A stretch of DNA of 64,000 bases, taken from positions 397,539 to 461,538 of the forward strand of contig CAVQXP010000002.1 in the NCBI GenBank assembly GCA_963717935.1. The letters are read 5' to 3'. Source of the stretch: Candidatus Eiseniibacteriota bacterium. GTDB taxonomy: Bacteria > Eisenbacteria > RBG-16-71-46. The notes beneath the pieces were generated by a model. It searched no databases, was not told the DNA's origin, and was given only the letters and a program-made list of their open reading frames with translations. Shown one piece after another: positions 37,115 through 53,394 of the stretch. Each line of letters starts with the position of its first letter. The stretch's first letter is position 1. Made by a program: the position numbers and the translations under genes.

Positions 37115-37573
37115 ATGAGAGGTGTCTTCGCCTGCATCTCACTCCTCGCCGTCGTCGCTGGCGTCGGTTGTGCCGCGCGTCAGCCCGTCGTGGTGGTACC
37201 CCCGGCGCCGGCGCCAGAGGCCGAGCTTGAACGGCGTGAGCGGATCGTGGTCGCACCCTTCTCCTTGACGGATGAGGAACTCCCGAAGTTCGGGGAGTAC
37301 GTCTACGTCGAGGTGCTGCCTGAGGCCATCCGGAACGTGACCCCGCAGTATCCCGATGTCGCCCGCGAGTCGAGGGTGGAAGGCACCGTGATGGTGCAGG
37401 CGTTGGTGGGCAAGGACGGAACGGTGAAGGACACCCGCATCGTCAAGTCGATCCCGATGCTGGACGCCGCGGCAACAGCGGCCGTCAGGCAGTGGCTCTT
37501 CAAGCCAGCGCAGGTCCGCGGCGAGCCGGTGGCGGTCTGGGTTGCCGTGCCGGTGACGTTCAGGCTGCACTGA
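37115..37573 (+). CDS. Lipoprotein with a TonB C-terminal domain
   Basis: LLAVVAGVGC lipobox; PQYPDVAR..VEGTV.V...V..DG.V..LD.AA..AVRQW.FKPA...G.PV. Confidence 0.85.
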   Translation: MRGVFACISLLAVVAGVGCAARQPVVVVPPAPAPEAELERRERIVVAPFSLTDEELPKFGEYVYVEVLPEAIRNVTPQYPDVARESRVEGTVMVQALVGKDGTVKDTRIVKSIPMLDAAATAAVRQWLFKPAQVRGEPVAVWVAVPVTFRLH

Positions 37574-37597: not shown

Positions 37598-39292
37598 GTG
37601 CACAGGGCTGGAGCATTCTTCCTCGTCTGCGCGGGGTTGCTCGGTCTCGCGCTGCCGTTGCCGCGCGCCGCCACGGCGGCCTGGCCGACCGACCCGCTCG
37701 TGAACGTACCGCTGTGCATCGCCACCGGAGACCAGGAACGGCCCGAGATCGTATTGGACGGTGTGGGTGGGACGATCGTCACCTGGCAGGACGCCCGTGA
37801 CGGTTGCTGCGACATCTACGCCCAGCGCATCTCGGGCGATGGCACGGCGCAGTGGTCGGCCAACGGGGTGGCCCTCTGCACCGCCACCGGCGAGCAGGGC
37901 TGCCCCGTGATCGTCTCGGACGGCGCGGGCGGGGCCATCGCCACCTGGATCGACACGCGTGGAGGCAGCCCCAACGGCGACCTCTACGCGCAGCGGATCT
38001 CGTCCACTGGCACGACTCAGTGGATGGCCGACGGCGCGGTCCTCTGCACCGCCCCCGCGTATCAGTACACTCCCAAGCTCATGTCGGACGGTGCAGGCGG
38101 GGCCATCGTCACCTGGTGGGACGAGCGCAGTGGCAACTACGACATCTACGCCCAGCGCATCTCGGGCGATGGCACGGTGCAGTGGCCGGCCGACGGGGTG
38201 GCCCTCTGCACCGCCGCCGCCAGCCAGTACTTCCCCGCGCTCACGTCGGACGGTGCAGACGGGGCCATCGTCACCTGGTCGGACTACCGCAGCGGCAACG
38301 GGGACATCTACGCCCAGCGCGTCTCGGGCGATGGCACGGTGCAGTGGTCGGCCAACGGGGTGGCCCTCTGCACCGCCACCGGCGAGCAGTACTACCCCAC
38401 CCTCGTCGCGGACGGCGCGGGCGGGGCCATCGTTACCTGGGGCGACGAACGCAGCGGCAACTACGACATCTACGCACAACGAATCTCGGGCGATGGCGAT
38501 GTGCAGTGGTCGGCCAACGGCGTGGCCCTCTGCACCGCCCCTGGTGAGCAGCACTACCCCAGGATCGTCTCGGACGGCGCGGGCGGGGCCATCGTCACCT
38601 GGTCGGACTACCGCAGCGGCAATAGGGATATCTACGCCCAGCGCGTCTCGGGCGATGGCACGGTGCAGTGGTCGGCCAACGGGGTGGCCCTCTGCACTGC
38701 CATCGGCACTCAGCAGGGGCCCGCCATCGTCTCGGACGGCGCGGCCGGGGCCGTCGTCAGCTGGTGGGACTACCGCAGCGGCAACTGCGACGTCTACGCC
38801 CAGCGCGTCTCGGGCGATGGCACGGTGCAGTGGCCGACCGACGGCGCGGCCCTCTGCACCGCCACCGGCGAGCAGTACTACCCCACCCTCGTCGCGGACG
38901 GCGCGGGCGGGGCCATCGCGGTCTGGCAGGAGCCCCGCAGCGGCAACTGGGACATCTACGCGCAGAGCGTGAAGGCAAGCGGCGAACTCGGCAGTGACTT
39001 GAGCGTGCCGGCCGAGGCCGTGCTCTCGTTCGCGCTCGAACCGGTGTGTCCGAATCCCTCGCGGGGTGGCGCGCTGACGGTGCACTTCACGCTGCCGAGC
39101 GGGTCGGTGGCTTGGCTCGAGTTGCTCGATGTGGCCGGGCGCCGCATCGCCATGCGTGAGGTGGGCTCGCTGGGCGCGGGACGCCACACGCTCGATCTTG
39201 GCGAGGGCCGTCGGCTTGCCCCGGGGCTCTATCTGGTGTGGCTCACGCAGGGCACGAGCACGCGCACGACGAGGGCGGTGGTGCTGAGGTAG
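37598..39292 (+). CDS. Secreted 8-repeat (~54 aa) beta-propeller protein with a T9SS/FlgD-like CTD
   Basis: Signal peptide; 8x DGAGGAIVTWxDxR..DIYAQR (~162-nt period); CTD PNP..DVAGR..GLY..R.VVLR. Confidence 0.88.
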   Translation: MHRAGAFFLVCAGLLGLALPLPRAATAAWPTDPLVNVPLCIATGDQERPEIVLDGVGGTIVTWQDARDGCCDIYAQRISGDGTAQWSANGVALCTATGEQGCPVIVSDGAGGAIATWIDTRGGSPNGDLYAQRISSTGTTQWMADGAVLCTAPAYQYTPKLMSDGAGGAIVTWWDERSGNYDIYAQRISGDGTVQWPADGVALCTAAASQYFPALTSDGADGAIVTWSDYRSGNGDIYAQRVSGDGTVQWSANGVALCTATGEQYYPTLVADGAGGAIVTWGDERSGNYDIYAQRISGDGDVQWSANGVALCTAPGEQHYPRIVSDGAGGAIVTWSDYRSGNRDIYAQRVSGDGTVQWSANGVALCTAIGTQQGPAIVSDGAAGAVVSWWDYRSGNCDVYAQRVSGDGTVQWPTDGAALCTATGEQYYPTLVADGAGGAIAVWQEPRSGNWDIYAQSVKASGELGSDLSVPAEAVLSFALEPVCPNPSRGGALTVHFTLPSGSVAWLELLDVAGRRIAMREVGSLGAGRHTLDLGEGRRLAPGLYLVWLTQGTSTRTTRAVVLR

Positions 39293-39401: not shown

Positions 39402-40328
39402 ATGCGGTGGATGTTGCTTTGGACTGGATTGACCCTGGTGGGCTCTGGCTGGCTGTGTTCCGTGCCACCGGTCGAGGCCGACGAAGCTACTCCGGTCGAG
39501 TGCATTCGCGTGTGGTGGTCGTGCGGTCCGGCCAGTCTGGCGTTCGCGGCTGATGGTTCGGTGGTTGTGGCGAATGCCATGTGCGGCCAGGTGACCCACT
39601 ACGACTCGACGGGTGCGGAGCTGAATCACTGGACCAGCCCGACCGGGGACAGCGGGTTGCCGTACTTCCCGAGCGGGATCGACCTTGATGGGGCCGGGAA
39701 CGTCTTCGTTGCGAATCTGTATGAGAAGCGGGTCGAGAAGTTCACTGCAGGCGGAACGCTCGTGGTGGCATATGGGGTGGGGACTCTCATCCATCCCACA
39801 GGGATTGCCGTTGATCGGGGGACGGGCCACCTCCTTGTGTGCGATGGGGGTGGGGGCGTGATCCGTGAGTACGACGCGACGGGGACACTGCTGAGGAACG
39901 TCGTGGCGGGCTACGAGGTGACCGACGTCGCACTGGCCCCCGGTGGGAATCTCTACGTCTGTTTCTACAACGGAGTGGTATGGGCGTTGGATGCCGGCGG
40001 GAGTCTGCTCGCCTCGTGGACGGTCCCTGATCAAGGGCCGGAAACGACGTTCAGAGGGATTGCCGTGAGCCCCGACGGAAACGTCCATGTGGCCTACAGG
40101 AGCAGTGGGAGAGTCCTCACGCTCTCGTCGAGTCTCCAGTATCTCGGGGACTGGCCGATCACCTGTTTCGAACCAAGTCCCGCGTTCTCCGGACTTGACT
40201 TCGATGGCCGGGGTCAGGCTGTGCTCAGCCAGGATTACGGTCTGGGTCAGATTGGACTCTTTAGCCTCGAGACCTCTGTTCCCGTCGCGTCGACGACTTG
40301 GGGAAAGCTCAAATCGCTCTATCGCTGA
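39402..40328 (+). CDS. Secreted NHL-repeat beta-propeller ending in TTWGKLKSLYR; lower GC
   Basis: Signal-like N-terminus; PSGIDLDGAGNVFVA, PTGIAVD, RGIAVSPDGNVHV; SD AAGGAG. Confidence 0.85.
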   Translation: MRWMLLWTGLTLVGSGWLCSVPPVEADEATPVECIRVWWSCGPASLAFAADGSVVVANAMCGQVTHYDSTGAELNHWTSPTGDSGLPYFPSGIDLDGAGNVFVANLYEKRVEKFTAGGTLVVAYGVGTLIHPTGIAVDRGTGHLLVCDGGGGVIREYDATGTLLRNVVAGYEVTDVALAPGGNLYVCFYNGVVWALDAGGSLLASWTVPDQGPETTFRGIAVSPDGNVHVAYRSSGRVLTLSSSLQYLGDWPITCFEPSPAFSGLDFDGRGQAVLSQDYGLGQIGLFSLETSVPVASTTWGKLKSLYR

Positions 40329-40614: not shown

Positions 40615-43600
40615 ATGCTCCCCACCGGTCCCTTCCGGCTGGCGTTCTGCCCTGCCCTGGTGGTCCTTCTTCTCGTCCTTACCTCCCTGTCTCCGCCCCA
40701 CGCCCACGCCATCTCGATCCACACGCTCTTCACGCCGACCGGTGCCGCCGCGTACGACCAGTTCGGCCTCTCGGTCGCCGGGGCGGGCGACGTCAACGGG
40801 GATGGCTACGACGATGTCATCGTCGGGGCCCTCTACAACGACGCGGGCGGGACGTATGCCGGCCGTGCCTACGTCTATTTCGGCGGACCGGGCGCGGACG
40901 CCGTCGCCGACCTCACCCTGGCCGGCGCCGCCGGGGACGACTACTTCGGCCACTCGGTCGCCGGGGCGGGGGACGTGAACGGGGATGGCTACGGCGATGT
41001 CATCGTCGGGGCCCACGGGAACGACGCGGGCGGGACGAACGCCGGCCGTGCGTACGTCTATTTCGGGGGTCCGGGCGCGGACGCCAGCGCCGACCTCATC
41101 CTGACCGGCGCCGCCGCGGGCGACAACTTCGGCTACTCGGTCGCCGGGGCGGGGGACGTCAACGGGGATGGCTACGGCGATGTCATCGTCGGGGCCCTCT
41201 ACAACGACGCGGGCGAGTCGGACGCCGGCCGCGCGTACGTGTACTACGGGGGCCCGGGTGCGGACGCCGTCGCCGACCTCACCCTGACCGGCGCCGCCGC
41301 GTCCGACTACCTCGGCACCTCGGTTGCCGGGGCGGGGGACGTCAACGGGGATGGCTACGGCGATGTCATCGTCGGGGCCAGCAGCGACGACGCGGGCGGG
41401 GCGGACGCCGGCCGCGCGTACGTGTACTACGGGGGCCCGGGCGCGGACGCCGTCGCCGACCTCACCCTGACCGGCGCCGCCGTTGGCGACTACTTCGGCT
41501 ACTCGGTCGCCGGGGCGGGGGACGTGAACGGGGATGGCTACGGCGATGTCATCGCCGGGGCCCTCTACAACGACGCGGGTGGGGCGAACGCCGGCCGTGC
41601 GTACGTGTACTACGGGGGCCCGGGCGCGGACGCCGTCGCCGACCTCACCCTGACCGGCGCCACGGGCGACTACCTCGGCCACTCGGTCGCCGGGGCGGGC
41701 GACGTGAACGGGGATGGCTACGGCGATGTCATCGTCGGGGCCCCCTTCAACGACGCGGGCGGGGGGGACGCCGGCCGTGCGTACGTCCATTTCGGGGGCC
41801 CGGGCGCGGACGCCGTCGCCGACCTCACCCTGACCGGCGCCGCCGCGTCCGACTACTTCGGCCGCTCGGTCGCCGGGGCGGGGGACGTCAACGGGGATGG
41901 CTACGGCGACGTCATCGTCGGGGCGAACGGCAACGACGCGGGCGGGACGGACGCCGGCCGGGCGTACGTGGCGACGGCCTATCCGTACAATGTGCTGTCT
42001 CCCAACGGTGGTGAGCAGTGGGTGGCGGGCACGACGGCGACGGTGCGCTGGCTGGGACCCGACGTGGCGGACATCGCCGTCTCGATGGACGGTGGGGCGA
42101 GCTACAGCACGCTGGCGAGCGGCGTGGGCGGGGCAACGGAGAACGAATTCCCGATCACGGTGCCGGGGATCGCGACCGAGTTCGGCAAGGTCCGACTGAG
42201 CCAGACGGGGCTGACGGTGGAACGTTTGACCTCGGACGCGAGCGACGGGGTGTTCCGAATCGTGCTGCCGCACGCTCCACCGGCGGCGGCGAGTGCGCTG
42301 GCCTGCACGCCGACCGGTGCCGCCGCGTCCGACAACTTCGGCAACTCGGTCGCCGGGGCGGGGGACGTCAACGGGGATGGCTACGGCGATGTCATCATCG
42401 GGGCCAACAACAACGACGCGGGCGGGACGAACGCGGGCCGGGCGTACGTGTACTTCGGGGGCCCGGGCGCGGACGCCGCCGCCGACCTCACTCTGACGGG
42501 TGTTGCCGCGTATGACTACTTCGGGTACTCGGTCGCGGGGGCGGGGGACGTGGACGGGGATGGCTTTGGTGATGTCCTCGTCGGGGCCTACTCCAACGAC
42601 GCGGGCGCGATGGACGCCGGCCAGGCGTACGTCTACCTCGGGGGACCGGGCGCGGACGCGGTCGCCGACCTCACCCTGACCGGCGCTGCCACGGGCGACC
42701 AGTTCGGCCGCTCGGTCGCCGGGGCGGGGGACGTCAACGGGGATGGCTATGGCGATGTCATCGTCGGGGCCGAGCGCGACGCCGCGGGCGGGATGTACGC
42801 GGGTCGTGCCTACGTGTACTACGGTGGTCCTGGCGCGGACGCCAGCGCCGACCTCACCCTGACCGGCGCCGCCACGGGCGACAACTTCGGCACCTCGGTC
42901 GCCGGGGCGGGGGACGTCAACGGGGATGGCTACGACGATGTCATCGTCGGGGCCTGCTACAACGACGCGGGCGGGACGGACGCCGGCCGTGCGTACGTGT
43001 ACTTCGGGGGACCAGGTGCCGACGCGGTCGCCGACCTCACCCTGACCGGCGCCGCCGCGCTCGACTACTTCGGCAACTCGGTGGCCGGGGCGGGGGACGT
43101 CAACGGGGACGGCTACGACGATGTCATCGTCGGGGCCTACCACAACGGCGCAAGCGGGACGGAAGCCGGCCGGGCCTACGTCTACTTCGGGGGACCTGGC
43201 GCCGACGCCGTCGCCGACCTCACCCTGACGGGCGCGGCCGTTGGCGACATGTTCGGCCGCTCGGTCGCGGGGGCGGGGGACGTCAACGGGGACGGCTACG
43301 GCGATGTCATCGTCGGGGCCTACCACAACAGCGCAAGCGGGATGTACGCCGGCCGGGCGTACGTGTACTTCGGCGGTCCCGGAGCCGACGCCGTCGCCGA
43401 CCTCATCGTGACCGGCGCCGCCGCGCTCGACTACTTCGGCTGCTCGGTGGCCGGGGCGGGCGACATCACCGGGGATGGCTTCGGCGATGTCATCGTCGGG
43501 GCGTACGGCAACGACGCGGGCGGGTCGAGCGCCGGCCGGGCGTACGTGTACGACTGCAACCGCTACTTCGTGACCACGCCCAACGGTGGCGAGACCTGGA

Positions 43601-44418
43601 ACGTGGGTGCGACGCAGACCGTCTCGTGGCTGGGCGCGGAGCCGGCCGACCTGTGGCTGTCGACCGACAACGGCGGCACGTACGGGCTGCTGCGCAGTGA
43701 GGTGGGCGGCTCGGAGAGCAACGCCCTGGCGCTGCTGGTCCCGCACCAGCCGACCCGCTTCGCCCGCATCCGTCTGACGCCGCACGACGGCGGCGTGAAG
43801 GGGGTGGGTGAGTCGGATTCGTCGTTCACCATCCAGTCGAGCGTCGAACTGCTGTCGCTGGTGGCGACGCTGGAGCCCGCGGGCGGGGCCACGCTGGCCT
43901 GGTCGAGCGAGCCCGCGGTGGGGCCCGGGGGGCTGGCCGGCTACCGGGTCTATCGGCTGGCGGACGGCGAGACGGGCAGTGGCACACGCGTCGGCGAGGA
44001 GCTGATCGTGACGACGACCTATCACGACGCGGGCGGCGCCGCGGGCAGTACGTACCGGCTGATCGCGGTGAACGGGCTGGCGGAGGAGCTGGAGCTGGGC
44101 CGGGTCACGGTGGCCGGCATGGTGACAGGGCTGCAGGCGTGGCCGTCGCCACTGCCGGCAGGCGGCGAGCTGCAGGTCCGCTTCGGGGTGCCGCTGGCGG
44201 CTCCGGGCTATCCGGCGACGGATCTGGATGTGGGGCTGTTCGACCTGGCGGGCCGTCGTGTGGCGACGCTGGCGCGCGGCCTGCAGGTGACGAGCACGGG
44301 GGTGGCGAGCCTGCGCTGGAACCCGCGGGGCTCGGCGGGCCCGGGCATCTACTTCCTGCGGGTGACGGCGCCGAGCGTGAACTTCAAACTCGAGAGGAAA
44401 GTGGTGGTGATCCCATGA
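40615..44418 (+). CDS. FG-GAP (integrin-alpha-like) double beta-propeller protein with CTD, copy 1
   Basis: 14 repeats FG.SVAGAGDVNGDGYGDVIVGA..ND..AGRAYVY in two blocks of 7, each followed by a PNGGExW Ig-like module; CTD FDLAGR..GIYFLRV; SD GGAGG. Confidence 0.93.
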   Translation: MLPTGPFRLAFCPALVVLLLVLTSLSPPHAHAISIHTLFTPTGAAAYDQFGLSVAGAGDVNGDGYDDVIVGALYNDAGGTYAGRAYVYFGGPGADAVADLTLAGAAGDDYFGHSVAGAGDVNGDGYGDVIVGAHGNDAGGTNAGRAYVYFGGPGADASADLILTGAAAGDNFGYSVAGAGDVNGDGYGDVIVGALYNDAGESDAGRAYVYYGGPGADAVADLTLTGAAASDYLGTSVAGAGDVNGDGYGDVIVGASSDDAGGADAGRAYVYYGGPGADAVADLTLTGAAVGDYFGYSVAGAGDVNGDGYGDVIAGALYNDAGGANAGRAYVYYGGPGADAVADLTLTGATGDYLGHSVAGAGDVNGDGYGDVIVGAPFNDAGGGDAGRAYVHFGGPGADAVADLTLTGAAASDYFGRSVAGAGDVNGDGYGDVIVGANGNDAGGTDAGRAYVATAYPYNVLSPNGGEQWVAGTTATVRWLGPDVADIAVSMDGGASYSTLASGVGGATENEFPITVPGIATEFGKVRLSQTGLTVERLTSDASDGVFRIVLPHAPPAAASALACTPTGAAASDNFGNSVAGAGDVNGDGYGDVIIGANNNDAGGTNAGRAYVYFGGPGADAAADLTLTGVAAYDYFGYSVAGAGDVDGDGFGDVLVGAYSNDAGAMDAGQAYVYLGGPGADAVADLTLTGAATGDQFGRSVAGAGDVNGDGYGDVIVGAERDAAGGMYAGRAYVYYGGPGADASADLTLTGAATGDNFGTSVAGAGDVNGDGYDDVIVGACYNDAGGTDAGRAYVYFGGPGADAVADLTLTGAAALDYFGNSVAGAGDVNGDGYDDVIVGAYHNGASGTEAGRAYVYFGGPGADAVADLTLTGAAVGDMFGRSVAGAGDVNGDGYGDVIVGAYHNSASGMYAGRAYVYFGGPGADAVADLIVTGAAALDYFGCSVAGAGDITGDGFGDVIVGAYGNDAGGSSAGRAYVYDCNRYFVTTPNGGETWNVGATQTVSWLGAEPADLWLSTDNGGTYGLLRSEVGGSESNALALLVPHQPTRFARIRLTPHDGGVKGVGESDSSFTIQSSVELLSLVATLEPAGGATLAWSSEPAVGPGGLAGYRVYRLADGETGSGTRVGEELIVTTTYHDAGGAAGSTYRLIAVNGLAEELELGRVTVAGMVTGLQAWPSPLPAGGELQVRFGVPLAAPGYPATDLDVGLFDLAGRRVATLARGLQVTSTGVASLRWNPRGSAGPGIYFLRVTAPSVNFKLERKVVVIP

Positions 44419-47400
44419 AGACCAGCACGGGTGCATTCCGTACGACCGCATGGCTTGGCCTGATGGGTCTGTGTCTCGTGCTTGCCTCTCTGGCTCCGGG
44501 ATCCGCCCACGCCATCTCGAGCCGCACACTCTTTACGCCGACCGGCGCCGCCGCGCTCGACTACCTGGGCTACTCGGTCGCCGGGGCGGGGGACGTCAAC
44601 GGTGATGGCTACGGCGATGTCATCGTCGGGGCCTATGCCAACGACGCGGGCGGGGCGAGCGCCGGCCGTGCGTACGTGTACTACGGGGGCCCGGGCGTGG
44701 ACGCCAGCGCCGACCTCATCCTGACCGGCGCGGTCGCGGGCGACAACTTCGGCTTCTCGGTCGCTGGGGCGGGCGACGTCAACGGGGATGGCTACGGCGA
44801 TGTCATCGTCGGGGCCCTCTACAACGACGCGGGCGGGTCGAGCGCCGGCCGGGCCTACGTCTACTTCGGGGGCCCGGGCGTGGACGCCAGCGCCGACCTC
44901 ATCCTGACCGGCGCGGCCGCGGGCGACGGCTTCGGCATCTCGGTGGCCGGGGCGGGGGACGTCAACGGGGATGGCTACGGCGATGTCATCGTCGGGGCCT
45001 ATGCCAACGACGCGGGCGGGGTGGATGCCGGCCGTGCGTACGTGTACTTCGGGGGCCCGGGCGCGGACGCCGTCGCCGACCTCACCCTGACCGGTGCGAC
45101 CGCGTCCGACTACTTCGGCATCTCGGTGGCCGGGGCGGGGGACGTCAACGGGGACGGCTACGGCGATGTCATCGTCGGGGCTAGAGGCAACGACGCGGGC
45201 GGGACGGACGCCGGCCGCGCCTACGTGTACTTCGGGGGCCCGGGCGCGGACGCCGTCGCCGACCTCACCCTGACCGGCGCCGCCACGGGCGACTTCTTCG
45301 GCCACTCGGTTGCCGGGGCGGGGGACGTCAACGGGGATGGCTACGGCGATGTGATTGTCGGGGCCTACTACAACGATGCGGGTGGGACGAACGCCGGCCG
45401 TGCGTACGTGTACTACGGGGGACCGGGTGCGGACGCCGTCGCCGACCTCACCCTGACCGGCGCCGCCGCGGGCGACGAGTTCGGCACCTCGGTCGCCGGG
45501 GCGGGGGACGTCAACGGGGACGGCTACGGCGATGTCATCGTCGGGGCCAGAGGCAACGACGCGGGCGGGACGGACGCCGGCCGCGCCTACGTGTACTTCG
45601 GGGGCCCGGGCGCGGACGCCATCGCCGACCTCACCCTGACCGGCGCCGCCGCGTACGACGACTTCGGCCACTCGGTCGCGGGGGCGGGGGACGTCAACGG
45701 GGATGGCTACGGTGATGTCATCGTCGGTGCTAGCGGCAACAACGCGGGCGGGACGGACGCCGGCCGGGCGTACGTGACGGCGATCTATACGTACATGGTG
45801 CTGTCGCCGAACGGTGGTGAGCAGTGGGTGGCGGGCGCGACGGCGACGGTGCACTGGCTGGGACACGACGTAGCGGACATCGCCGTCTCGACCAACGGCG
45901 GGGCGAGCTACAGCACGCTGGTGAGCGGCGTGGGCGGTGACGAGCAGAACGAATTCCCGATCATCGTGCCGGGGCCGGCCACGGACCTGGCGCGGGTCCG
46001 ACTGAGCCGGACGGGGCTGACGGTGCAGCGCTCGACCTCCGACGCCAGCGACGGGGTGTTCCGGATCGTGCTGCCGCACGCTCCACCGGCGGTGGCGAGT
46101 GCGCTGGCCTGCACGCCGACCGGCACCGCCGCGGGCGACTACTTCGGCCGCTCGGTCGCCGGGGCGGGGGACGTCAACGGGGATGGCTACGGTGATGTCA
46201 TCGTCGGGGCCCACCACAACGACGCGGGCGGGACGGACGCCGGCCGTGCGTACGTGTACTACGGGGGCCCGGGCGCGGACGCCATCGCCGACCTGACCCT
46301 GACCGGCGCGGACGCGAGCGACTACTTCGGGTGGTCGGTCGCCGGAGCGGGCGATGTCAACGGGGATGGCTATGGCGACGTGATCGTCGGGGCCTACGGG
46401 AACGACAAGGACGGGGTGGACGCCGGCCGGGCGTACGTGTACTACGGGGGCCCGGGCGCGGACGCCGTCGCCGACCTCACCCTGACCGGCGCGGCCGCGG
46501 GCGACGGTTTCGGCTACTCGGTCGCCGGGGCGGGCGACGTCAACGGGGATGGCTACGGCGATGTCATCGTCGGGGCCTATGGCAACGACGCGGGCGGGGC
46601 GGAGGCCGGGCGGGCGTACGTGTACTACGGGGGCCCGGGCGCCGACGCCGTGGCCGACCTCACCCTGACCGGCGCCACCGCGGGCGACTTGTTCGGCAGT
46701 TCGGTCGCCGGGGCTGGCGATGTCAACGGGGATGGCTATGGCGATGTCATCGTCGGGGCCTACAGCAACGACGCGGGCGGGACGAACGTCGGCCGGGCCT
46801 ATGTGTACTTCGGGGGACCGGGTGCCGACGCCAGCGCCGACCTCACCCTGGCGGGTGCGGCCGCGGGCGACGACTTCGGCAACTCGGTCGCCGGGGCGGG
46901 CGACGTTAACGGGGATGGCTATGGCGATGTCATCGCCGGGGCCTACAGCAACGACGCGGGCGGGACGAACGCCGGCCGGGCCTATGTGTACTTCGGGGGC
47001 CCGGGTGCGGACGCCGTTGCCGACCTCACCCTGACCGGTGCGGCCGCGTACGACTACTTCGGCCGCTCGGTCGCCGGGGCGGGGGACGTCAACGGGGATG
47101 GCTACGGCGATGTCGTCGTCGGGGCGAACGGCAACGACGCGGGCGGGATGGGCGCCGGCCGGGCGTACGTCTATTTCGGGGGACCGGGCGCGGACGCCGT
47201 CGCCGACCTCACCCTGACCGGTGCCTTGGGCGACTCGTTCGGCTACTCGGTCACCGGGGCGGGGGACGTCAACGGGGATGGCTACGGCGATGTCATCGTC
47301 GGCGCCTATCTCAACGACGCGGCCGGGACGGACGCCGGCCGGGCGTACGTCTACGACTGCAACCGCTACTTCGTGACCACGCCCAACGGCGGCGAGACCT

Positions 47401-48218
47401 GGAACGTCGGTGCCACGCAGACCGTGTCGTGGCTGGGCGCGGAGCCAGCCGACCTGTGGCTGTCGGTGGACGGGGGGCGCACGTACGACCTGCTCGAGAG
47501 CACCGTGGGCGGCAAGGAGTCGAACGCATTCTCCATGCGTGTGCCGCATGCGCCGACGCGGTTCGCGCGGGTGAAGGTGACGCCGCACGACCAGGCGATC
47601 CCGGGCAGCGACAAGAGCGACTCGCTCTTCACGATCCAGTCGAGCGTCGAACTGCTGTCGCTGGTGGCGGCGCTGGCGCCCGAGGGCGGGACGACGCTGG
47701 CGTGGTCGAGCGAGCCCGCGGTGGGGCCCGACGGGCTGGCCGGCTACCGGCTCTACCGGCTGGCGGACGGCGAGACGGGCAGTGGCACGCGCGTCGGCGA
47801 GGAGCTGATCGTGACGACGACCTATCACGACGCGGGCGGCGCCGCGGGCAGCACCTACCGTCTGATCGCGGTGAACGGGCTGGCGGAGGAGCTGGAGCTG
47901 GGCCGGGTCACGGTGGCCGGCATGGTGACAGGGCTGCAGGCGTGGCCGTCGCCGCTGCCGGCGGGCGGCGAGCTGCAGGTCCGCTTCGCAGTGCCGGCGG
48001 CGGCGGGCTTCCCGGCGACGGACCTGGATGTGGGGCTGTTCGACCTGGCGGGTCGTCGTGTGGCGACGCTGGCGCACGGACCGCGGGCCTCGAGCAGCGG
48101 CGTGGTGAGTCTGCGCTGGAGCCCGCGGGGGTCGGTCGGGGCGGGCATCTACTTCCTGCGGGTCCTGGCGCCAAGTGCGAACGTCAGACTCCAGAAGAGG
48201 GTGGTGGTGATCCGATGA
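44415..48218 (+). CDS. FG-GAP double beta-propeller protein with CTD, copy 2 (tandem paralogue)
   Basis: Same 7+7 architecture and same length (3804 nt); ATGA overlap with copy 1. Confidence 0.93.
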   Translation: MKTSTGAFRTTAWLGLMGLCLVLASLAPGSAHAISSRTLFTPTGAAALDYLGYSVAGAGDVNGDGYGDVIVGAYANDAGGASAGRAYVYYGGPGVDASADLILTGAVAGDNFGFSVAGAGDVNGDGYGDVIVGALYNDAGGSSAGRAYVYFGGPGVDASADLILTGAAAGDGFGISVAGAGDVNGDGYGDVIVGAYANDAGGVDAGRAYVYFGGPGADAVADLTLTGATASDYFGISVAGAGDVNGDGYGDVIVGARGNDAGGTDAGRAYVYFGGPGADAVADLTLTGAATGDFFGHSVAGAGDVNGDGYGDVIVGAYYNDAGGTNAGRAYVYYGGPGADAVADLTLTGAAAGDEFGTSVAGAGDVNGDGYGDVIVGARGNDAGGTDAGRAYVYFGGPGADAIADLTLTGAAAYDDFGHSVAGAGDVNGDGYGDVIVGASGNNAGGTDAGRAYVTAIYTYMVLSPNGGEQWVAGATATVHWLGHDVADIAVSTNGGASYSTLVSGVGGDEQNEFPIIVPGPATDLARVRLSRTGLTVQRSTSDASDGVFRIVLPHAPPAVASALACTPTGTAAGDYFGRSVAGAGDVNGDGYGDVIVGAHHNDAGGTDAGRAYVYYGGPGADAIADLTLTGADASDYFGWSVAGAGDVNGDGYGDVIVGAYGNDKDGVDAGRAYVYYGGPGADAVADLTLTGAAAGDGFGYSVAGAGDVNGDGYGDVIVGAYGNDAGGAEAGRAYVYYGGPGADAVADLTLTGATAGDLFGSSVAGAGDVNGDGYGDVIVGAYSNDAGGTNVGRAYVYFGGPGADASADLTLAGAAAGDDFGNSVAGAGDVNGDGYGDVIAGAYSNDAGGTNAGRAYVYFGGPGADAVADLTLTGAAAYDYFGRSVAGAGDVNGDGYGDVVVGANGNDAGGMGAGRAYVYFGGPGADAVADLTLTGALGDSFGYSVTGAGDVNGDGYGDVIVGAYLNDAAGTDAGRAYVYDCNRYFVTTPNGGETWNVGATQTVSWLGAEPADLWLSVDGGRTYDLLESTVGGKESNAFSMRVPHAPTRFARVKVTPHDQAIPGSDKSDSLFTIQSSVELLSLVAALAPEGGTTLAWSSEPAVGPDGLAGYRLYRLADGETGSGTRVGEELIVTTTYHDAGGAAGSTYRLIAVNGLAEELELGRVTVAGMVTGLQAWPSPLPAGGELQVRFAVPAAAGFPATDLDVGLFDLAGRRVATLAHGPRASSSGVVSLRWSPRGSVGAGIYFLRVLAPSANVRLQKRVVVIR

Positions 48219-49316
48219 AGCGCCTGGCGGGGATCCTGTTCGGCTGCGCGCTGGCCGGCCTGCTGCTCGCCGGCCCCGCGCGAGCCGTGACGCTGTTCGG
48301 CCTGCTCGACACGGGTGAACTGTACGCGAGCGCCGACGGCGGGGTGACGTGGAGCATCCGCGCCACGCTGCCGGTGCGCGACGCGGTGGCTCTGGTCGCG
48401 CGCGAGTCCAGCACGGAGCTGCTGCTCGCCTCGGCAGAGCGGCTCGATCTATGCGTCGGGCGATGCGGGGGCGAGCTGGGTTGCGGTCGCGGCCGTGCCG
48501 GCCTCGGACGTGGCGGCGCTCGGTGGCGCGCCCGGCCTCTGCCTGCTGCTGACCGAAAGCGGGAGCGTGTATCGGTCCACCGACACCGGAGTGACCTGGG
48601 TGGGGGTGGGCGCGATCACGGCCTCCGACCTGACGAGCGTCGCGCGGCTGAACGGCGCGTGGTACGCGCTGGCGCGCACGGGTGGTGTCTACCGCTCGCA
48701 GGACGACGGGGCGACCTGGACGGCGGTGGCCGCCATCACCACGTCGGAGGCGGTCGAGCTGGTGGCGTACGTTGGGAGGCTGTACGCCATCAGTGCGAGC
48801 GGTGACGCGTACGAGAGCCAGGACGCCGGCGTGAGCTTCGCGGCGGTGGGCACGCTGTCGCACGTGGGGACGAGCGCGCTGGCGGCCAGCGAGGGGGAGT
48901 TGGTGGCGGGGCTGGAGACCGGGGAGACGGCGGCGAGCAGCGGCGCGACGAGCTGGACCTGGCGCGGGACGATCAACCAGCTGAGGCTGCGCGCGCTGGC
49001 GACGGACATCCCCACGACGACCGGCGTGGCGATGCCCGGGGAGGTGGTGCTGGCGTTGCGGACGCCGTACCCGAACCCGGCGACGAGCGCGGTGCGGCTG
49101 GCGCTGGACCTGGCGCGGGAGAGCGTCGTGACGCTGAGCGTGCACGACGTCGCGGGTCGCGAGGTGGCGCGGCCGATCGCGGGTGAGCTGCTGGCGGCCG
49201 GGAGGGTGACGCGGTTGTGGCGACCGGAGGGGCTGCGGCCGGGCGTGTACGTGGTGCGCGCGACCGCGGACGGCGCGGCTCTCACGCGCCGGCTGGTCTG
49301 GCTGGGCGGGCGGTAG
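48215..49316 (+). CDS. Secreted BNR/Asp-box-like repeat protein with CTD (frameshift ~48440)
   Basis: Signal peptide; repeated Y.S.D.G.TW; CTD PYPNP..HDVAGR..PGVY..RRLV. Confidence 0.82.
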
Positions 49317-50379: not shown

Positions 50380-50892
50380 GGATCCTCTCTGCGGCTGCAC
50401 GTGAGCCCGACCGGCGGCTCGGGGGCATCGGGACGAAACCGGGCCGCAATCCTACCTCATCGGGCGCCCGGCATCCCGCGCGCGGGCGCGGCCCCGTGCG
50501 GAGCGCCGCGACCTCTTCGACCTGCACGATGGCGGTGCCGCAGGAGGCGGCCGCCCCGCAGATCGGCTCGCGCCTGCGACGAGTCGCGAAGAGGGGGCGG
50601 TGGTGGCGTCCGCAGGTAGCCTAGGTCGGAACTCCTGACCCGCAGCGTGGATGGCCCAGTCCGCGGGATCGGTGCGGTGATCGGATCGCGCAGGTCCCAG
50701 GAAGAAGCTCAAAGAAACACTAGGCGAGGATACGAGCAGGTGCTAGCGTTCCGGGTACAAGGTATGCCCCGCTCGGCTTTCGGGCCTCGGGGACCCCGCT
50801 CCTTGACTTCGTTGGCCTCGTCGCATGCCCCTGCGTCGAGCCAGCCGCTCCCGTCGTGGGGCTTGCCCCTCCTGCGGCAGGAGTACGCGCAC

Positions 50893-53394
50893 ATGTTCCT
50901 CCTGGATTCCTCGCCACCCGTTCGGCGTGAGTCCGCCCGCCGTGTCGTGGTCCTCTTCTCCCTCATCCTCCTCGTGATGGGTGCCTCGGCTGCGATCGCT
51001 CGAATCGCCGCCGCCGACCCGCTCTTCGCCGTGCAGTTCCTCTCCTTTGACACGGGGAGCAATCCCTACTCCGTGGCGATCGGGGACCTGAACGGGGACG
51101 GGAACGCCGACCTGGCGACGGCGAACTCCAACTCCGGCACCGTCTCGGTGCTGCTCGGCAACGGCGACGGGAGCTTCGGGGCGAAGACCGACTTCGACGT
51201 GGGGAGCGGTCCCTACTTTGTGGCGATCGGGGACCTGAACGGGGACGGGAAGGCCGACCTGGCGACGGCGAACCACGGCTCCGCCACCGTCTCGGTGCTG
51301 CTCGGCAACGGCGACGGGACCTTCGGGGCGAAGACCGACTACGGGACGGGGAGCTCTCCCTCCTCCGTGGCGATTGGGGACCTGAACAGGGACGGGAAGG
51401 CCGACCTGGCGACGGCGAACTACAGCGACAGCACGGTGTCGGTGCTGCTCGGCAACGGCCATGGGACCTTCAGGGCGAAGGCCGACTTCGTGGCGGGCAA
51501 CGGTCCCTCCTCCGTGGCGATCGGGGACCTGAACGGGGACGGGAAGGCCGACCTGGCGACGGCGAACGCCGACTCCAGCACGGTCTCGGTGCTGCTCGGC
51601 AACGGCGACGGGACCTTCGGGACGATGACCGACTTCTGGGTGGGGAGCGGTCCCCGCTGCGTGGCAATCGGGGACCTGAACGGGGACGGGAAGGCCGACC
51701 TGGCGACGGCGAACTCGAACTCCGGCACGGTGTCGGTGCTGCTCGGCAACGGCGACGGGACCTTCGGGGTGAAGACCGACTTCGGGACGGGGAACTGGCC
51801 CCGCTCCGTGGCGATCGGGGACCTCAACGGGGACGGACGACCCGACCTGGCGGTGGCGAACTACTTCAGCACGGTGTCGGTGCTGCTCGGCAACGGTGAC
51901 GGGAGTTTCGGGGCGAAGACCGACTTCGGGGCGGGGATGTATCCCTCCTCCGTGGCAATCGGGGATCTGAACGGCGACGGGAACGCTGACCTGGCCACGG
52001 CGAATGACGAATCCAGCACGGTGTCGGTGCTGCTCGGCAACGGCGACGGGAGCTTCGGGGCGAAGACCGATTTCGGGACGGGGATCTATCCCTACTCCGT
52101 GGCGATCGGGGACCTGGACGGGGACGGAAACTCCGACCTGGCGGTGGCGAACCTCAATTCCAACACGGTGTCGGTGTTGCTCGGCGACGGCGACGGGAGC
52201 TTCGGGACGAAGACCGATTTTGCGACGGGGAGCGGTCCCATCTCCGTGGCGATCGGGGACCTGAACGGGGACGGCAGACCCGATCTGGCGACGGCGAACA
52301 ACTATTCCAGCAAGGTGTCGGTGCTGCTCGGCAACGGCGACGGGACCTTCGGGGCGAAGACGGACTACGGGACGGGGAGCGCTCCCTTCTCCGTGGCGAT
52401 CGGGGATCTGAACGGGGATGGGAAGGCCGACCTGGCGGTGGCGAACTTCAACTCCAGCACGGTGTCGGTGCTGCTCGGCAACGGCGACGGGACCTTTGGG
52501 GCGAAGACCGACTTCGGGGTGGGGAGCGATCCTGCCTCCGTGGCGATCGGGGACCTGAACGGGGACGGGAAGGCCGACCTGGCGGTGGCGAACTTCAACT
52601 CCAGCACGGTGTCGGTGCTGCTCGGCAACGGCGACGGGAGCTTCGGGGCGAAGACGGACTTCAACGTGGGGAGCTCTCCCTCCTCCGTGGCAATCGGGGA
52701 CCTGAACGGGGACGGGAAGGCCGACCTGGCGGTGGCGAACAGGGTCTCCTGGAGCGCCTCGGTGCTGCTCGGCAACGGCGACGGGAGCTTCGGGGCAAAG
52801 ACCGACTTCGCGACGGGGTACCTTCCCTGCTTGGTGGCGATCGGGGACCTGAACGGGGACGGGAAGGCCGACCTGGCGACGGCGAACTACTCCAACACGG
52901 TCTCGGTGCTGCTCGGCGACGGCGACGGGACCTTCGGGGCGAAGACCGACTTCGGGGTGGGGAGCAATCCCTCCTCCGTGGCGATCGGGGACCTGAACGG
53001 GGACGGGAGACCCGACCTGGCGACGGCGAACCTCAATTCCAACACGGTCTCGGTGCTGGTCAACATCGGTACCAGCACCGCCGGTGCCGGCCCGGCGACG
53101 TTGTCCCCTCCGCGGACCTTCCAACTCCTGGCGCCGAGGCCGAATCCCTCGCGTGGGACGAGCGAGATCCGATTCCTGCTGCCCTCGGCGTGCACGGCAG
53201 AGGTGGCCCTGTTCGACCTCGCCGGTCGCAAGGTGCGGTCGTTGGGGGGCGGTGAGCGCCTGACCCCGGGCGAGCACAGCATCCGCTGGGACGGGCGGGA
53301 TGGCTCCGGCGCTCCCGTGCGTGACGGCGTCTATCTCGTGCGAGTGCGCGCCGGGGGCAGCGTCGGGGTGGGGAGGTTGGTCGTCCTGCGATAA
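50893..53394 (+). CDS. VCBS/FG-GAP-like repeat protein (14 x ~49 aa) with an FlgD-Ig CTD
   Basis: P.SVAIGDLNGDGKADLATAN..TVSVLLGNGDGTFGAKTDF repeats; CTD PNP..FDLAGR..WDGRD.SG..GVY. Confidence 0.92.
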   Translation: MFLLDSSPPVRRESARRVVVLFSLILLVMGASAAIARIAAADPLFAVQFLSFDTGSNPYSVAIGDLNGDGNADLATANSNSGTVSVLLGNGDGSFGAKTDFDVGSGPYFVAIGDLNGDGKADLATANHGSATVSVLLGNGDGTFGAKTDYGTGSSPSSVAIGDLNRDGKADLATANYSDSTVSVLLGNGHGTFRAKADFVAGNGPSSVAIGDLNGDGKADLATANADSSTVSVLLGNGDGTFGTMTDFWVGSGPRCVAIGDLNGDGKADLATANSNSGTVSVLLGNGDGTFGVKTDFGTGNWPRSVAIGDLNGDGRPDLAVANYFSTVSVLLGNGDGSFGAKTDFGAGMYPSSVAIGDLNGDGNADLATANDESSTVSVLLGNGDGSFGAKTDFGTGIYPYSVAIGDLDGDGNSDLAVANLNSNTVSVLLGDGDGSFGTKTDFATGSGPISVAIGDLNGDGRPDLATANNYSSKVSVLLGNGDGTFGAKTDYGTGSAPFSVAIGDLNGDGKADLAVANFNSSTVSVLLGNGDGTFGAKTDFGVGSDPASVAIGDLNGDGKADLAVANFNSSTVSVLLGNGDGSFGAKTDFNVGSSPSSVAIGDLNGDGKADLAVANRVSWSASVLLGNGDGSFGAKTDFATGYLPCLVAIGDLNGDGKADLATANYSNTVSVLLGDGDGTFGAKTDFGVGSNPSSVAIGDLNGDGRPDLATANLNSNTVSVLVNIGTSTAGAGPATLSPPRTFQLLAPRPNPSRGTSEIRFLLPSACTAEVALFDLAGRKVRSLGGGERLTPGEHSIRWDGRDGSGAPVRDGVYLVRVRAGGSVGVGRLVVLR

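Follow-up and report, generated by a model that had tools for sequence, protein, structure and literature searches.

The gene examined here lies in the window (the whole 64,000-nucleotide stretch of Candidatus Eiseniibacteriota DNA that was analysed) and encodes a small beta-propeller protein that begins with a likely signal peptide and ends in a distinctive C-terminal tail (Table 1). The last codons of its open reading frame, at positions 40278-40328 of the forward strand, read VPVASTTWGKLKSLYR-stop; a start at 40275 adds one Ser. According to the first-pass annotation, this NHL propeller lacks the C-terminal domain (CTD) shared by five secreted propellers around it, and this was borne out: a T9SS-A/FlgD-like CTD is present in all five neighbours, each of which is matched by TIGR04183 (E-values from 4e-6 to 0.09; two of the five pass the cut-off of this model), and a search with the Pfam and NCBIfam profiles produced no Por_Secre_tail, TIGR04183 or PF18962 match in the NHL protein. 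The tail is no feature of NHL proteins as such because 37 of 38 homologues lack it, the one exception being 96% identical; three of the 38 carry a CTD. The BNR-type neighbour is split over two frames, which may reflect either a sequencing indel or a pseudogene. Directly upstream of the cluster of CTD and tail genes (37115-37573 of the window), there is a small gene for a stand-alone TonB C-terminal-domain lipoprotein.

Table 1. Features of the window and of other regions of the source genome (G000, contig C4); positions without a contig name are those of the window.
Feature	Location	Strand	Basis
NHL/SGL beta-propeller protein gene, 308 aa, with signal peptide and C-terminal tail	39402..40328	+	ORF list; Pfam NHL, SGL, SBBP
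Likely Sec signal peptide, about 26 aa	39402..39479	+	by eye from translation
Pro/Thr/Val-rich linker VPVAST preceding the tail	40278..40295	+	position counts, 150 tails
Tail core TWGKLKSLYR and stop; predicted docking helix	40296..40328	+	motif counts and complex prediction
Repeat-propeller protein, T9SS-A-like CTD at end	37598..39292	+	TIGR04183 and own CTD profile
FG-GAP protein, CTD at end	40615..44418	+	Pfam, TIGR04183, own CTD profile
FG-GAP protein, CTD at end	44415..48218	+	Pfam, TIGR04183, own CTD profile
BNR-type protein, CTD at end, gene split over two frames (48215-48805, 48495-49316)	48215..49316	+	ORF list, Pfam, TIGR04183, CTD profile
FG-GAP protein, CTD at end	50890..53394	+	Pfam, TIGR04183, own CTD profile
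Second PorU-like C25 peptidase	G000 C4:946024-950310		profile search
Lipoprotein of the lipB family with Lys-less tail	G000 C4:1143957-1144646		relaxed motif search
lipB, lipoprotein with Lys-less tail	G000 C4:1737382-1738128		relaxed motif search
Barrel-lipA-lipB operon	G000 C4:1737382-1740948	minus	gene reading

In the source genome (3.0 Mb, 93% complete), a six-frame search yields 16 instances of [ST]WGx[LIVM]K, and 14 of them are followed by exactly four residues ending in YR and by a stop codon. These 14 ORFs comprise 13 intact genes, all of which start with a signal peptide as judged by eye, and the 3' fragment of a lamin-tail-domain gene disrupted by a frameshift; with the tails removed, they fall into 11 BLAST groups. 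A lamin-tail-domain gene with the tail in another frame (L006:6819-7702) directly precedes another tail gene and a gene for a CTD endonuclease. Across the phylum, the strict DNA pattern of the tail is present in 105 of the 121 genomes and the reversed pattern in none; the relaxed pattern was found in 37 of 40 genomes of a set chosen for low counts. A scan of GTDB detected at least 128 stretches with a match, with Eisenbacteria, Krumholzibacteriota, Latescibacterota, Poribacteria and Zixibacteria among the labels of the matches listed; the tails of Poribacteria and of the Zixibacteria-labelled phylum are variants. A tail profile was built after three chance-looking matches (L060, L101 and L128) had been dropped. 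The 93 complete carriers form 49 clusters, that is, the tail is portable among unrelated secreted proteins and is not limited to homologues of the NHL protein. Among 81 complete carriers (median length, 237 aa), 76 passed a lenient signal-peptide rule, compared with a background of 36% of the 150-450 aa genes of the source genome under a slightly stricter rule, so that cytoplasmic proteins are not the typical carriers of the tail.

The sequence of the tail is tightly constrained. W and G are fixed, and the Lys is near-invariant, with 905 Lys matches against 3 non-Lys matches in 40 genomes (the non-Lys pattern covers Arg encoded by CGN and leaves out codons that start with A). In the 16 Poribacteria genomes, the core is TW[GA]x-hydrophobic-K followed by 2-3 residues only, so the YR end is lineage-specific; there are 8-133 matches per genome to the Poribacteria tail pattern against 1-10 to the control (the variable gap counts some tails twice). 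C-terminal extensions of up to about 30 residues after the tail occur, as does one triple tandem copy. None of the 75 tails searched matched NCBIfam, and Pfam produced four weak and unrelated matches only, so that no assigned family was found; there was no match to PDB by sequence. The literature search detected no description of the tail, with a mention in a supplement remaining possible. Taken as a whole, the tail is very probably a real, portable envelope-sorting or docking tag.

The relationship of the tail to the CTD was characterized using a CTD profile that was seeded on the five window neighbours and extended to 54 proteins of the source genome, 42 of which are found by TIGR04183. The two signals are mutually exclusive, as had been proposed: none of the 54 CTD proteins has the tail, none of the 14 tail ORFs matches the CTD profile, and at the 30 loci where the motif is extended or internal (34 instances), no protein combines a tail with a CTD. 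The tail proteins of the source genome are small (median of 239 aa, against 675 aa for the CTD proteins), and at 6 of 11 loci, the tail gene lies within 4 kb of a CTD gene, compared with 8% of other genes. Weak similarity (E about 3e-5) links one tail protein to CTD proteins encoded nearby, two of which contain cohesin domains. When one passenger of the source genome, with its tail removed, was used as the query, 618 representatives were recovered; a TWG-type end is present in 42 of the best 150 of these 618, and among the 112 of the best 150 that were scannable by length, there were 17 with PEP-CTERM, 8 with a T9SS-A CTD and 3 with IPTL-CTERM. The claim that the tail substitutes for the CTD holds at the level of the passenger family, where tail, PEP-CTERM and CTD replace one another. 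Clustering of the neighbours of 72 distinct tail loci yielded CTD proteins (19 of the 72) and one 9-locus family as recurring neighbours, and no dedicated recurring neighbour beyond these. A cluster of tail genes is preceded, in six loci, by a gene for a secreted protein of about 200 aa without a tail (L003:6254-6856), which we take, by eye, to be dockerin-like; cohesin domains occur in the CTD proteins of L001.

A relaxed version of the motif revealed, in the source genome, two lipoproteins from a single family that end in Lys-less tails. The gene for one of them, lipB, comes after a gene for another lipoprotein, lipA, and a gene for a 714-aa barrel protein, and this barrel-lipA-lipB operon is conserved: the gene order recurs across the phylum, with the lipoprotein genes directly behind the barrel gene in the loci read, and the lipoprotein profile produced matches in all 31 phylum genomes searched, representing 17 of 17 families. 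Among the lipB homologues, 102 of 120 end in [ST]W[GS], with the Lys present in 29% of those, and lipA usually ends in TWGxLR soon after the last strand. Zero, one, two or three tails occur per lipoprotein; 24 of 71 family members are tail-less as classed by regular expression. An NTF2-like lipoprotein with three tandem tails (L221, G006:C20) and one with two (L187:2825-3529) were observed, and such proteins are possible multivalent linkers. Neither Pfam nor NCBIfam contains anything matching the barrel, lipA or lipB, apart from the SnoaL model, which matches 1 of the 71 family members; a sequence search of PDB with the lipoproteins produced an N-terminal match to LpqN only and no solved relative. 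In ESM Atlas, the matches are to unnamed clusters only, which for the lipoproteins include Gemmatimonadota and Bacteroidota clusters, so that related NTF2-like lipoproteins may exist where no tail is known. Judging from these searches, the tail, the lipoproteins and the barrel appear to belong to no named family.

The AF2 model of lipB contains a predicted NTF2-like domain (compared with 3rob_A: Z 14.2, rmsd 1.9, 121 residues aligned), followed by a disordered linker (pLDDT 45-54) and by the protein's own tail, modelled as a helix (pLDDT 83-92). Because a confident helix follows a disordered linker, docking of the lipB tail in cis is suggested. The barrel is predicted to be plug-less, with 28 strands (pLDDT 88.5, pTM 0.71); in the model of 660 residues, the strands span residues 61 to 659 and are preceded by three low-confidence helices. 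The best match in the fold search was MtrB (6r2q_B; Foldseek E 3e-12, Z 17.7, rmsd 8.4, 475 residues aligned, 8% identity), which, like the modelled barrel, is very wide and lacks a plug; because the rmsd is poor, this match indicates general barrel likeness only. The conduits of the MtrB/PioB type have a multihaem cytochrome as their partner, whereas the partners here are NTF2-like lipoproteins without CxxCH in the sequences read. Slam, SprA and usher barrels are absent from the top fold matches, although a relationship to them may still exist. Slam, the type XI system, combines a 14-strand barrel with TPR repeats at the N-terminus and recognizes a C-terminal domain that is itself a folded barrel; it resembles the present arrangement in that an outer-membrane barrel is encoded beside lipoproteins and small cargo is targeted by its C-terminus, and differs from it in the number of strands and in the TPR domain, for which there is no counterpart in the barrel model.

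Prediction of the tail together with a candidate receptor, a check proposed when the tail was first noticed, was carried out with the lipB domain without its own tail and the last 36 aa of the window protein. The complex scored 0.84 (0.80, 0.84 and 0.89 in individual runs) against 0.06 for the best control. Of 157 solved complexes, 116 reach the 0.84 mark, as do 2 of 215 mismatched pairs; these counts are only a rough guide here, since our own alignments were supplied for the prediction. The runs share at least 84% of the contacts, with a pLDDT of at least 57 for the partner. In the predicted complex, the W, L, K and Y of the tail contact F75, F77, V92, I100, N103, L104, I151, Y159, I161 and D197, and the Lys packs against F75, V92 and I100. 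In the 24 family members classed as tail-less, F/Y75, D81, L/M104 and D/E197 are conserved in 88-96%; the extra conservation of the interface residues, which are also NTF2 core residues, gives p=0.24 when the close family is considered and p=0.01 for the wide one. The score speaks to fit and not to use in the cell, because natural sequences may have taught the model the arrangement in cis, in which case the trans complex might be scored in the same manner as a split gene. Since all three lipoproteins of the source genome bear their own tail-like end, the groove may be filled in cis in this genome, and elsewhere a tail-less lipB may serve the tail of lipA instead of those of the passengers. The tolerance of C-terminal extensions and the tandem tails fit binding in a groove better than recognition of a free C-terminus.

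Further evidence comes from co-occurrence across genomes. In the Zixibacteria-labelled phylum, to which G125 belongs, the lipoprotein pair was found in 10 of 25 genomes, and the same 10 genomes carry TWGKIKALF[KR] elsewhere; among the other 15, there are 11 with no tail match, two with chance-looking matches and two with one plausible tail. These ten genomes are not independent because they probably represent one clade. All five operon loci that were fetched have the order metG-tatD-(ksgA in four)-barrel-lipA-lipB, with lipA tailed and lipB tail-less (the housekeeping genes were named by eye), and all five fetched passengers are signal-peptide proteins of about 135-145 aa from one family. The barrel profile detected no match in the 16 tail-bearing Poribacteria genomes, and the lipoprotein profile matches 13 of these 16 only weakly (E from 1e-10 to 6e-6), mostly in tail-less, generic NTF2-like proteins. 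A single one among the Poribacteria matches has a tail-like end, WSTLKQTR (L257:1423-2064). In two Poribacteria loci, L262 and L272, the gene for the NTF2-like lipoprotein is convergent with a ksgA-like gene; in other phyla, ksgA precedes the barrel operon. No lipoprotein or barrel match was obtained in G123, in which a tail gene is present and for which completeness is not given, or in G125, G131 and G134, where the tails lie on short contigs. Conversely, the barrel-lipoprotein operon persists in the tail-poor genomes G022, G031 and G059.

The reading that we favour, and to which we would assign about an even chance, is that the tail is a portable ten-residue helix for which an NTF2-like lipoprotein, the product of a gene next to that of the 28-strand barrel, provides a docking groove, and that the lipoproteins and the barrel capture small, tailed signal-peptide proteins and, with no CTD involved, route them to the cell surface or tether them there. 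Sec would carry the passenger across the inner membrane, after which the passenger's tail would bind the lipoprotein groove, which in most families would be that of the tail-less lipB and, in the family of the source genome, a groove from which the lipoprotein's own Lys-less or degenerate tail is displaced. Next, the passenger would pass through the barrel or stay held at it. Cleavage of the linker and anchoring of the passenger may be the task of the second PorU-like C25 peptidase, which is frequently encoded immediately downstream of tail genes. Export and surface display of the tailed proteins is what we infer from this scheme. The earlier suggestion of an uncharacterised export or attachment system has gained named candidates, the barrel and the NTF2-like lipoproteins, from the conserved operon and the predicted docking; the route itself remains conjectural. 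More tentatively, and with a probability well short of even, the parts might form a system for export and display other than types I-XI, in which the plug-less barrel and NTF2-like catchers would take any small protein with a ten-residue donor helix, pass it to the surface and hold it there via chains of tail-bearing lipoproteins or via a dedicated PorU-like peptidase, in parallel to the T9SS-like pathway of Eisenbacteria and allied uncultured phyla.

The alternative that survives best, although we consider it rather unlikely, is that the tail is a miniature T9SS-like signal, read by SprA and a PorV paralogue and then removed by the second PorU-like peptidase, which would put a surface anchor in its place; the NTF2-like lipoproteins would be no more than passengers, or else the helix would have evolved from them. 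The source genome encodes a PorU (NF033707, 486.6 bits against a cut-off of 420) and two further C25 genes, five PorV_fam genes above the cut-off, and an SprA-like gene with matches in several split frames below the cut-off; SprA-like, PorV-like and C25 genes also exist in Poribacteria, where the barrel was not found. GldM and PorP-type shuttles had no match in the source genome, yet no control genome matched either. In the search for a co-occurring peptidase, matches to the second PorU-like gene, the weaker of which may be ordinary PorU, were detected in all 36 genomes searched; the His and Cys motifs are intact in the source genome. Tail genes lie upstream of it in 14 of 18 phylum stretches, and in 17 such stretches, there are 13 strict tail matches against 0.7 expected, on at least three unrelated passenger groups. 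The proximity of tail genes and CTD genes points in the same direction, as does the statement in PMC12618676 that different types of CTD use different shuttle barrels. Against this reading, known T9SS signals are folded domains rather than 10-mers, and neither of the two Poribacteria stretches has tails upstream of the C25 gene. The PorU cleavage site, given as X/(GSA)(VLI) in PMC4560394, is not clearly enriched in the tail linkers (50 of 150 against 42.7 in shuffled linkers, a number reached by 75 of 1000 shuffles), and the tail-linker profile does not single out CTD linkers, its score being reached by 109 of 1000 shuffles. A linker expression is enriched (31 of 54 against 19.6; 82 of 150 against 48.5) and carries little weight since it was devised post hoc. 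Furthermore, the tail tracks the lipoprotein operon in the Zixibacteria-labelled sample, and G125 has SprA and PorV, no lipoproteins and only one tail, at a contig edge. The miniature-signal explanation and the lipoprotein-reader explanation can both be partly true.

Several observations on this machinery are of a more general character. The SprA/Sov-like gene of the source genome (L148, G000:C4:1327229-1333287) is split into several separate open frames, which, together with other frameshifts, suggests assembly indel errors. Divergent from the second PorU-like gene is a gene for a Rotamase_2 PPIase (L147:1467-2927), with homologues in 14 of 18 other upstream stretches. At L142, L143, L144 and L145, PorV-like genes adjoin a gene for a large secreted or CTD-like protein; two are near a barrel of the TonB-receptor type, and one is beside a GWxTD gene.

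It is also conceivable, albeit improbable, that the tail in the lipoprotein groove is a periplasmic tether or subunit contact that chains lipoproteins and their partners, with no export through the barrel. The predicted docking, with the helix in cis and the same high-scoring complex in trans, would serve this explanation equally well; the occurrence of zero to three tails per lipoprotein suits chains or cross-links, and the absence of barrel matches from the 16 Poribacteria genomes agrees with it. However, homologous passengers elsewhere bear surface-sorting signals, the lipoprotein genes stand directly behind the barrel gene in the loci read, and between 14 and more than 100 different passengers would need to be tethered by the products of one to a few lipoprotein genes. 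Lower still ranks the explanation that the tail is a plain amphipathic membrane-binding helix without a protein reader, in the manner of MinD or PBP5, which we deem very improbable. The amphipathic character noticed at the outset is real, with a mean hydrophobic moment over the last 9 residues of 0.52 against 0.40 for shuffled sequences and a net charge of +2.3. Yet the Lys shows scarcely any tolerance to replacement, such as by Arg, within the codons covered by the pattern, W and G are fixed, and the Poribacteria version is too short for a lipid anchor. A covalent link, made by an L,D-transpeptidase as in Braun's lipoprotein, between peptidoglycan and the invariant Lys close to the C-terminus was rejected as barely credible, notwithstanding the YkuD genes of G000, G001 and G003, given that YkuD is not matched in the tail-rich genomes G121 and G124 (the latter possibly incomplete) and that the Lys packs against F75, V92 and I100 in the complex model.

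The tail, as the favoured lipoprotein-reader explanation would have it, works like a C-terminal sorting signal and differs from both T9SS CTDs and tripartite signals in the properties that define these. The CTDs of the T9SS (type A, TIGR04183/PF18962, carried by PorV and cut by PorU; type B, with PorP/SprF-like shuttles) share with the tail the C-terminal location, the Sec-exported and unrelated passengers, the many copies per genome and the interchangeability on one family, and the source genome has SprA-, PorV- and PorU-like genes. A CTD, however, is a beta-sandwich of about 90 aa, whereas the tail is a ten-residue helix on small passengers and would be read by an NTF2-like lipoprotein whose gene adjoins that of a 28-strand barrel. 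The tripartite signals (PEP-CTERM TIGR02595, IPTL-CTERM, MYXO-CTERM, LPXTG) likewise consist of a short motif near the C-terminus, in many copies, on unrelated passengers with signal peptides, but they include a transmembrane segment, which the tail lacks, with 9 residues after the Thr and charged ones among them; nor does anything here point to an intramembrane protease. Criteria for such signals are set out in bioRxiv 10.1101/2023.06.07.544157; in the part of the text of this preprint that was available, TWG, Poribacteria and Eisenbacteria do not occur. With regard to the principle of binding, a parallel is donor-strand complementation in type V and chaperone-usher pili, where, as proposed here, a short terminal element completes the groove of a partner; there, a strand enters an Ig or transthyretin-like fold, whereas here, a helix is predicted to enter an NTF2-like cone. 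In type V pili, the subunits are lipoproteins, and their processing is carried out by C25 peptidases.

In several widespread uncultured phyla, a tag that is unnamed in the libraries and literature searched is found on tens to more than 100 envelope proteins of each genome. If the proposed mechanism is correct, the barrel would provide a new route across the outer membrane and would be one of the widest known, and the tail and its groove would constitute a very short peptide-catcher pair with a possible use as a tag. Because the proposed reader is specific, the mechanism can be tested without culturing, with a ten-residue peptide, a 170-residue domain and a three-gene operon. Among the carriers, there is also a protein of about 150 aa (L082:724-1203) that, by eye, appears to be a small outer-membrane barrel itself.
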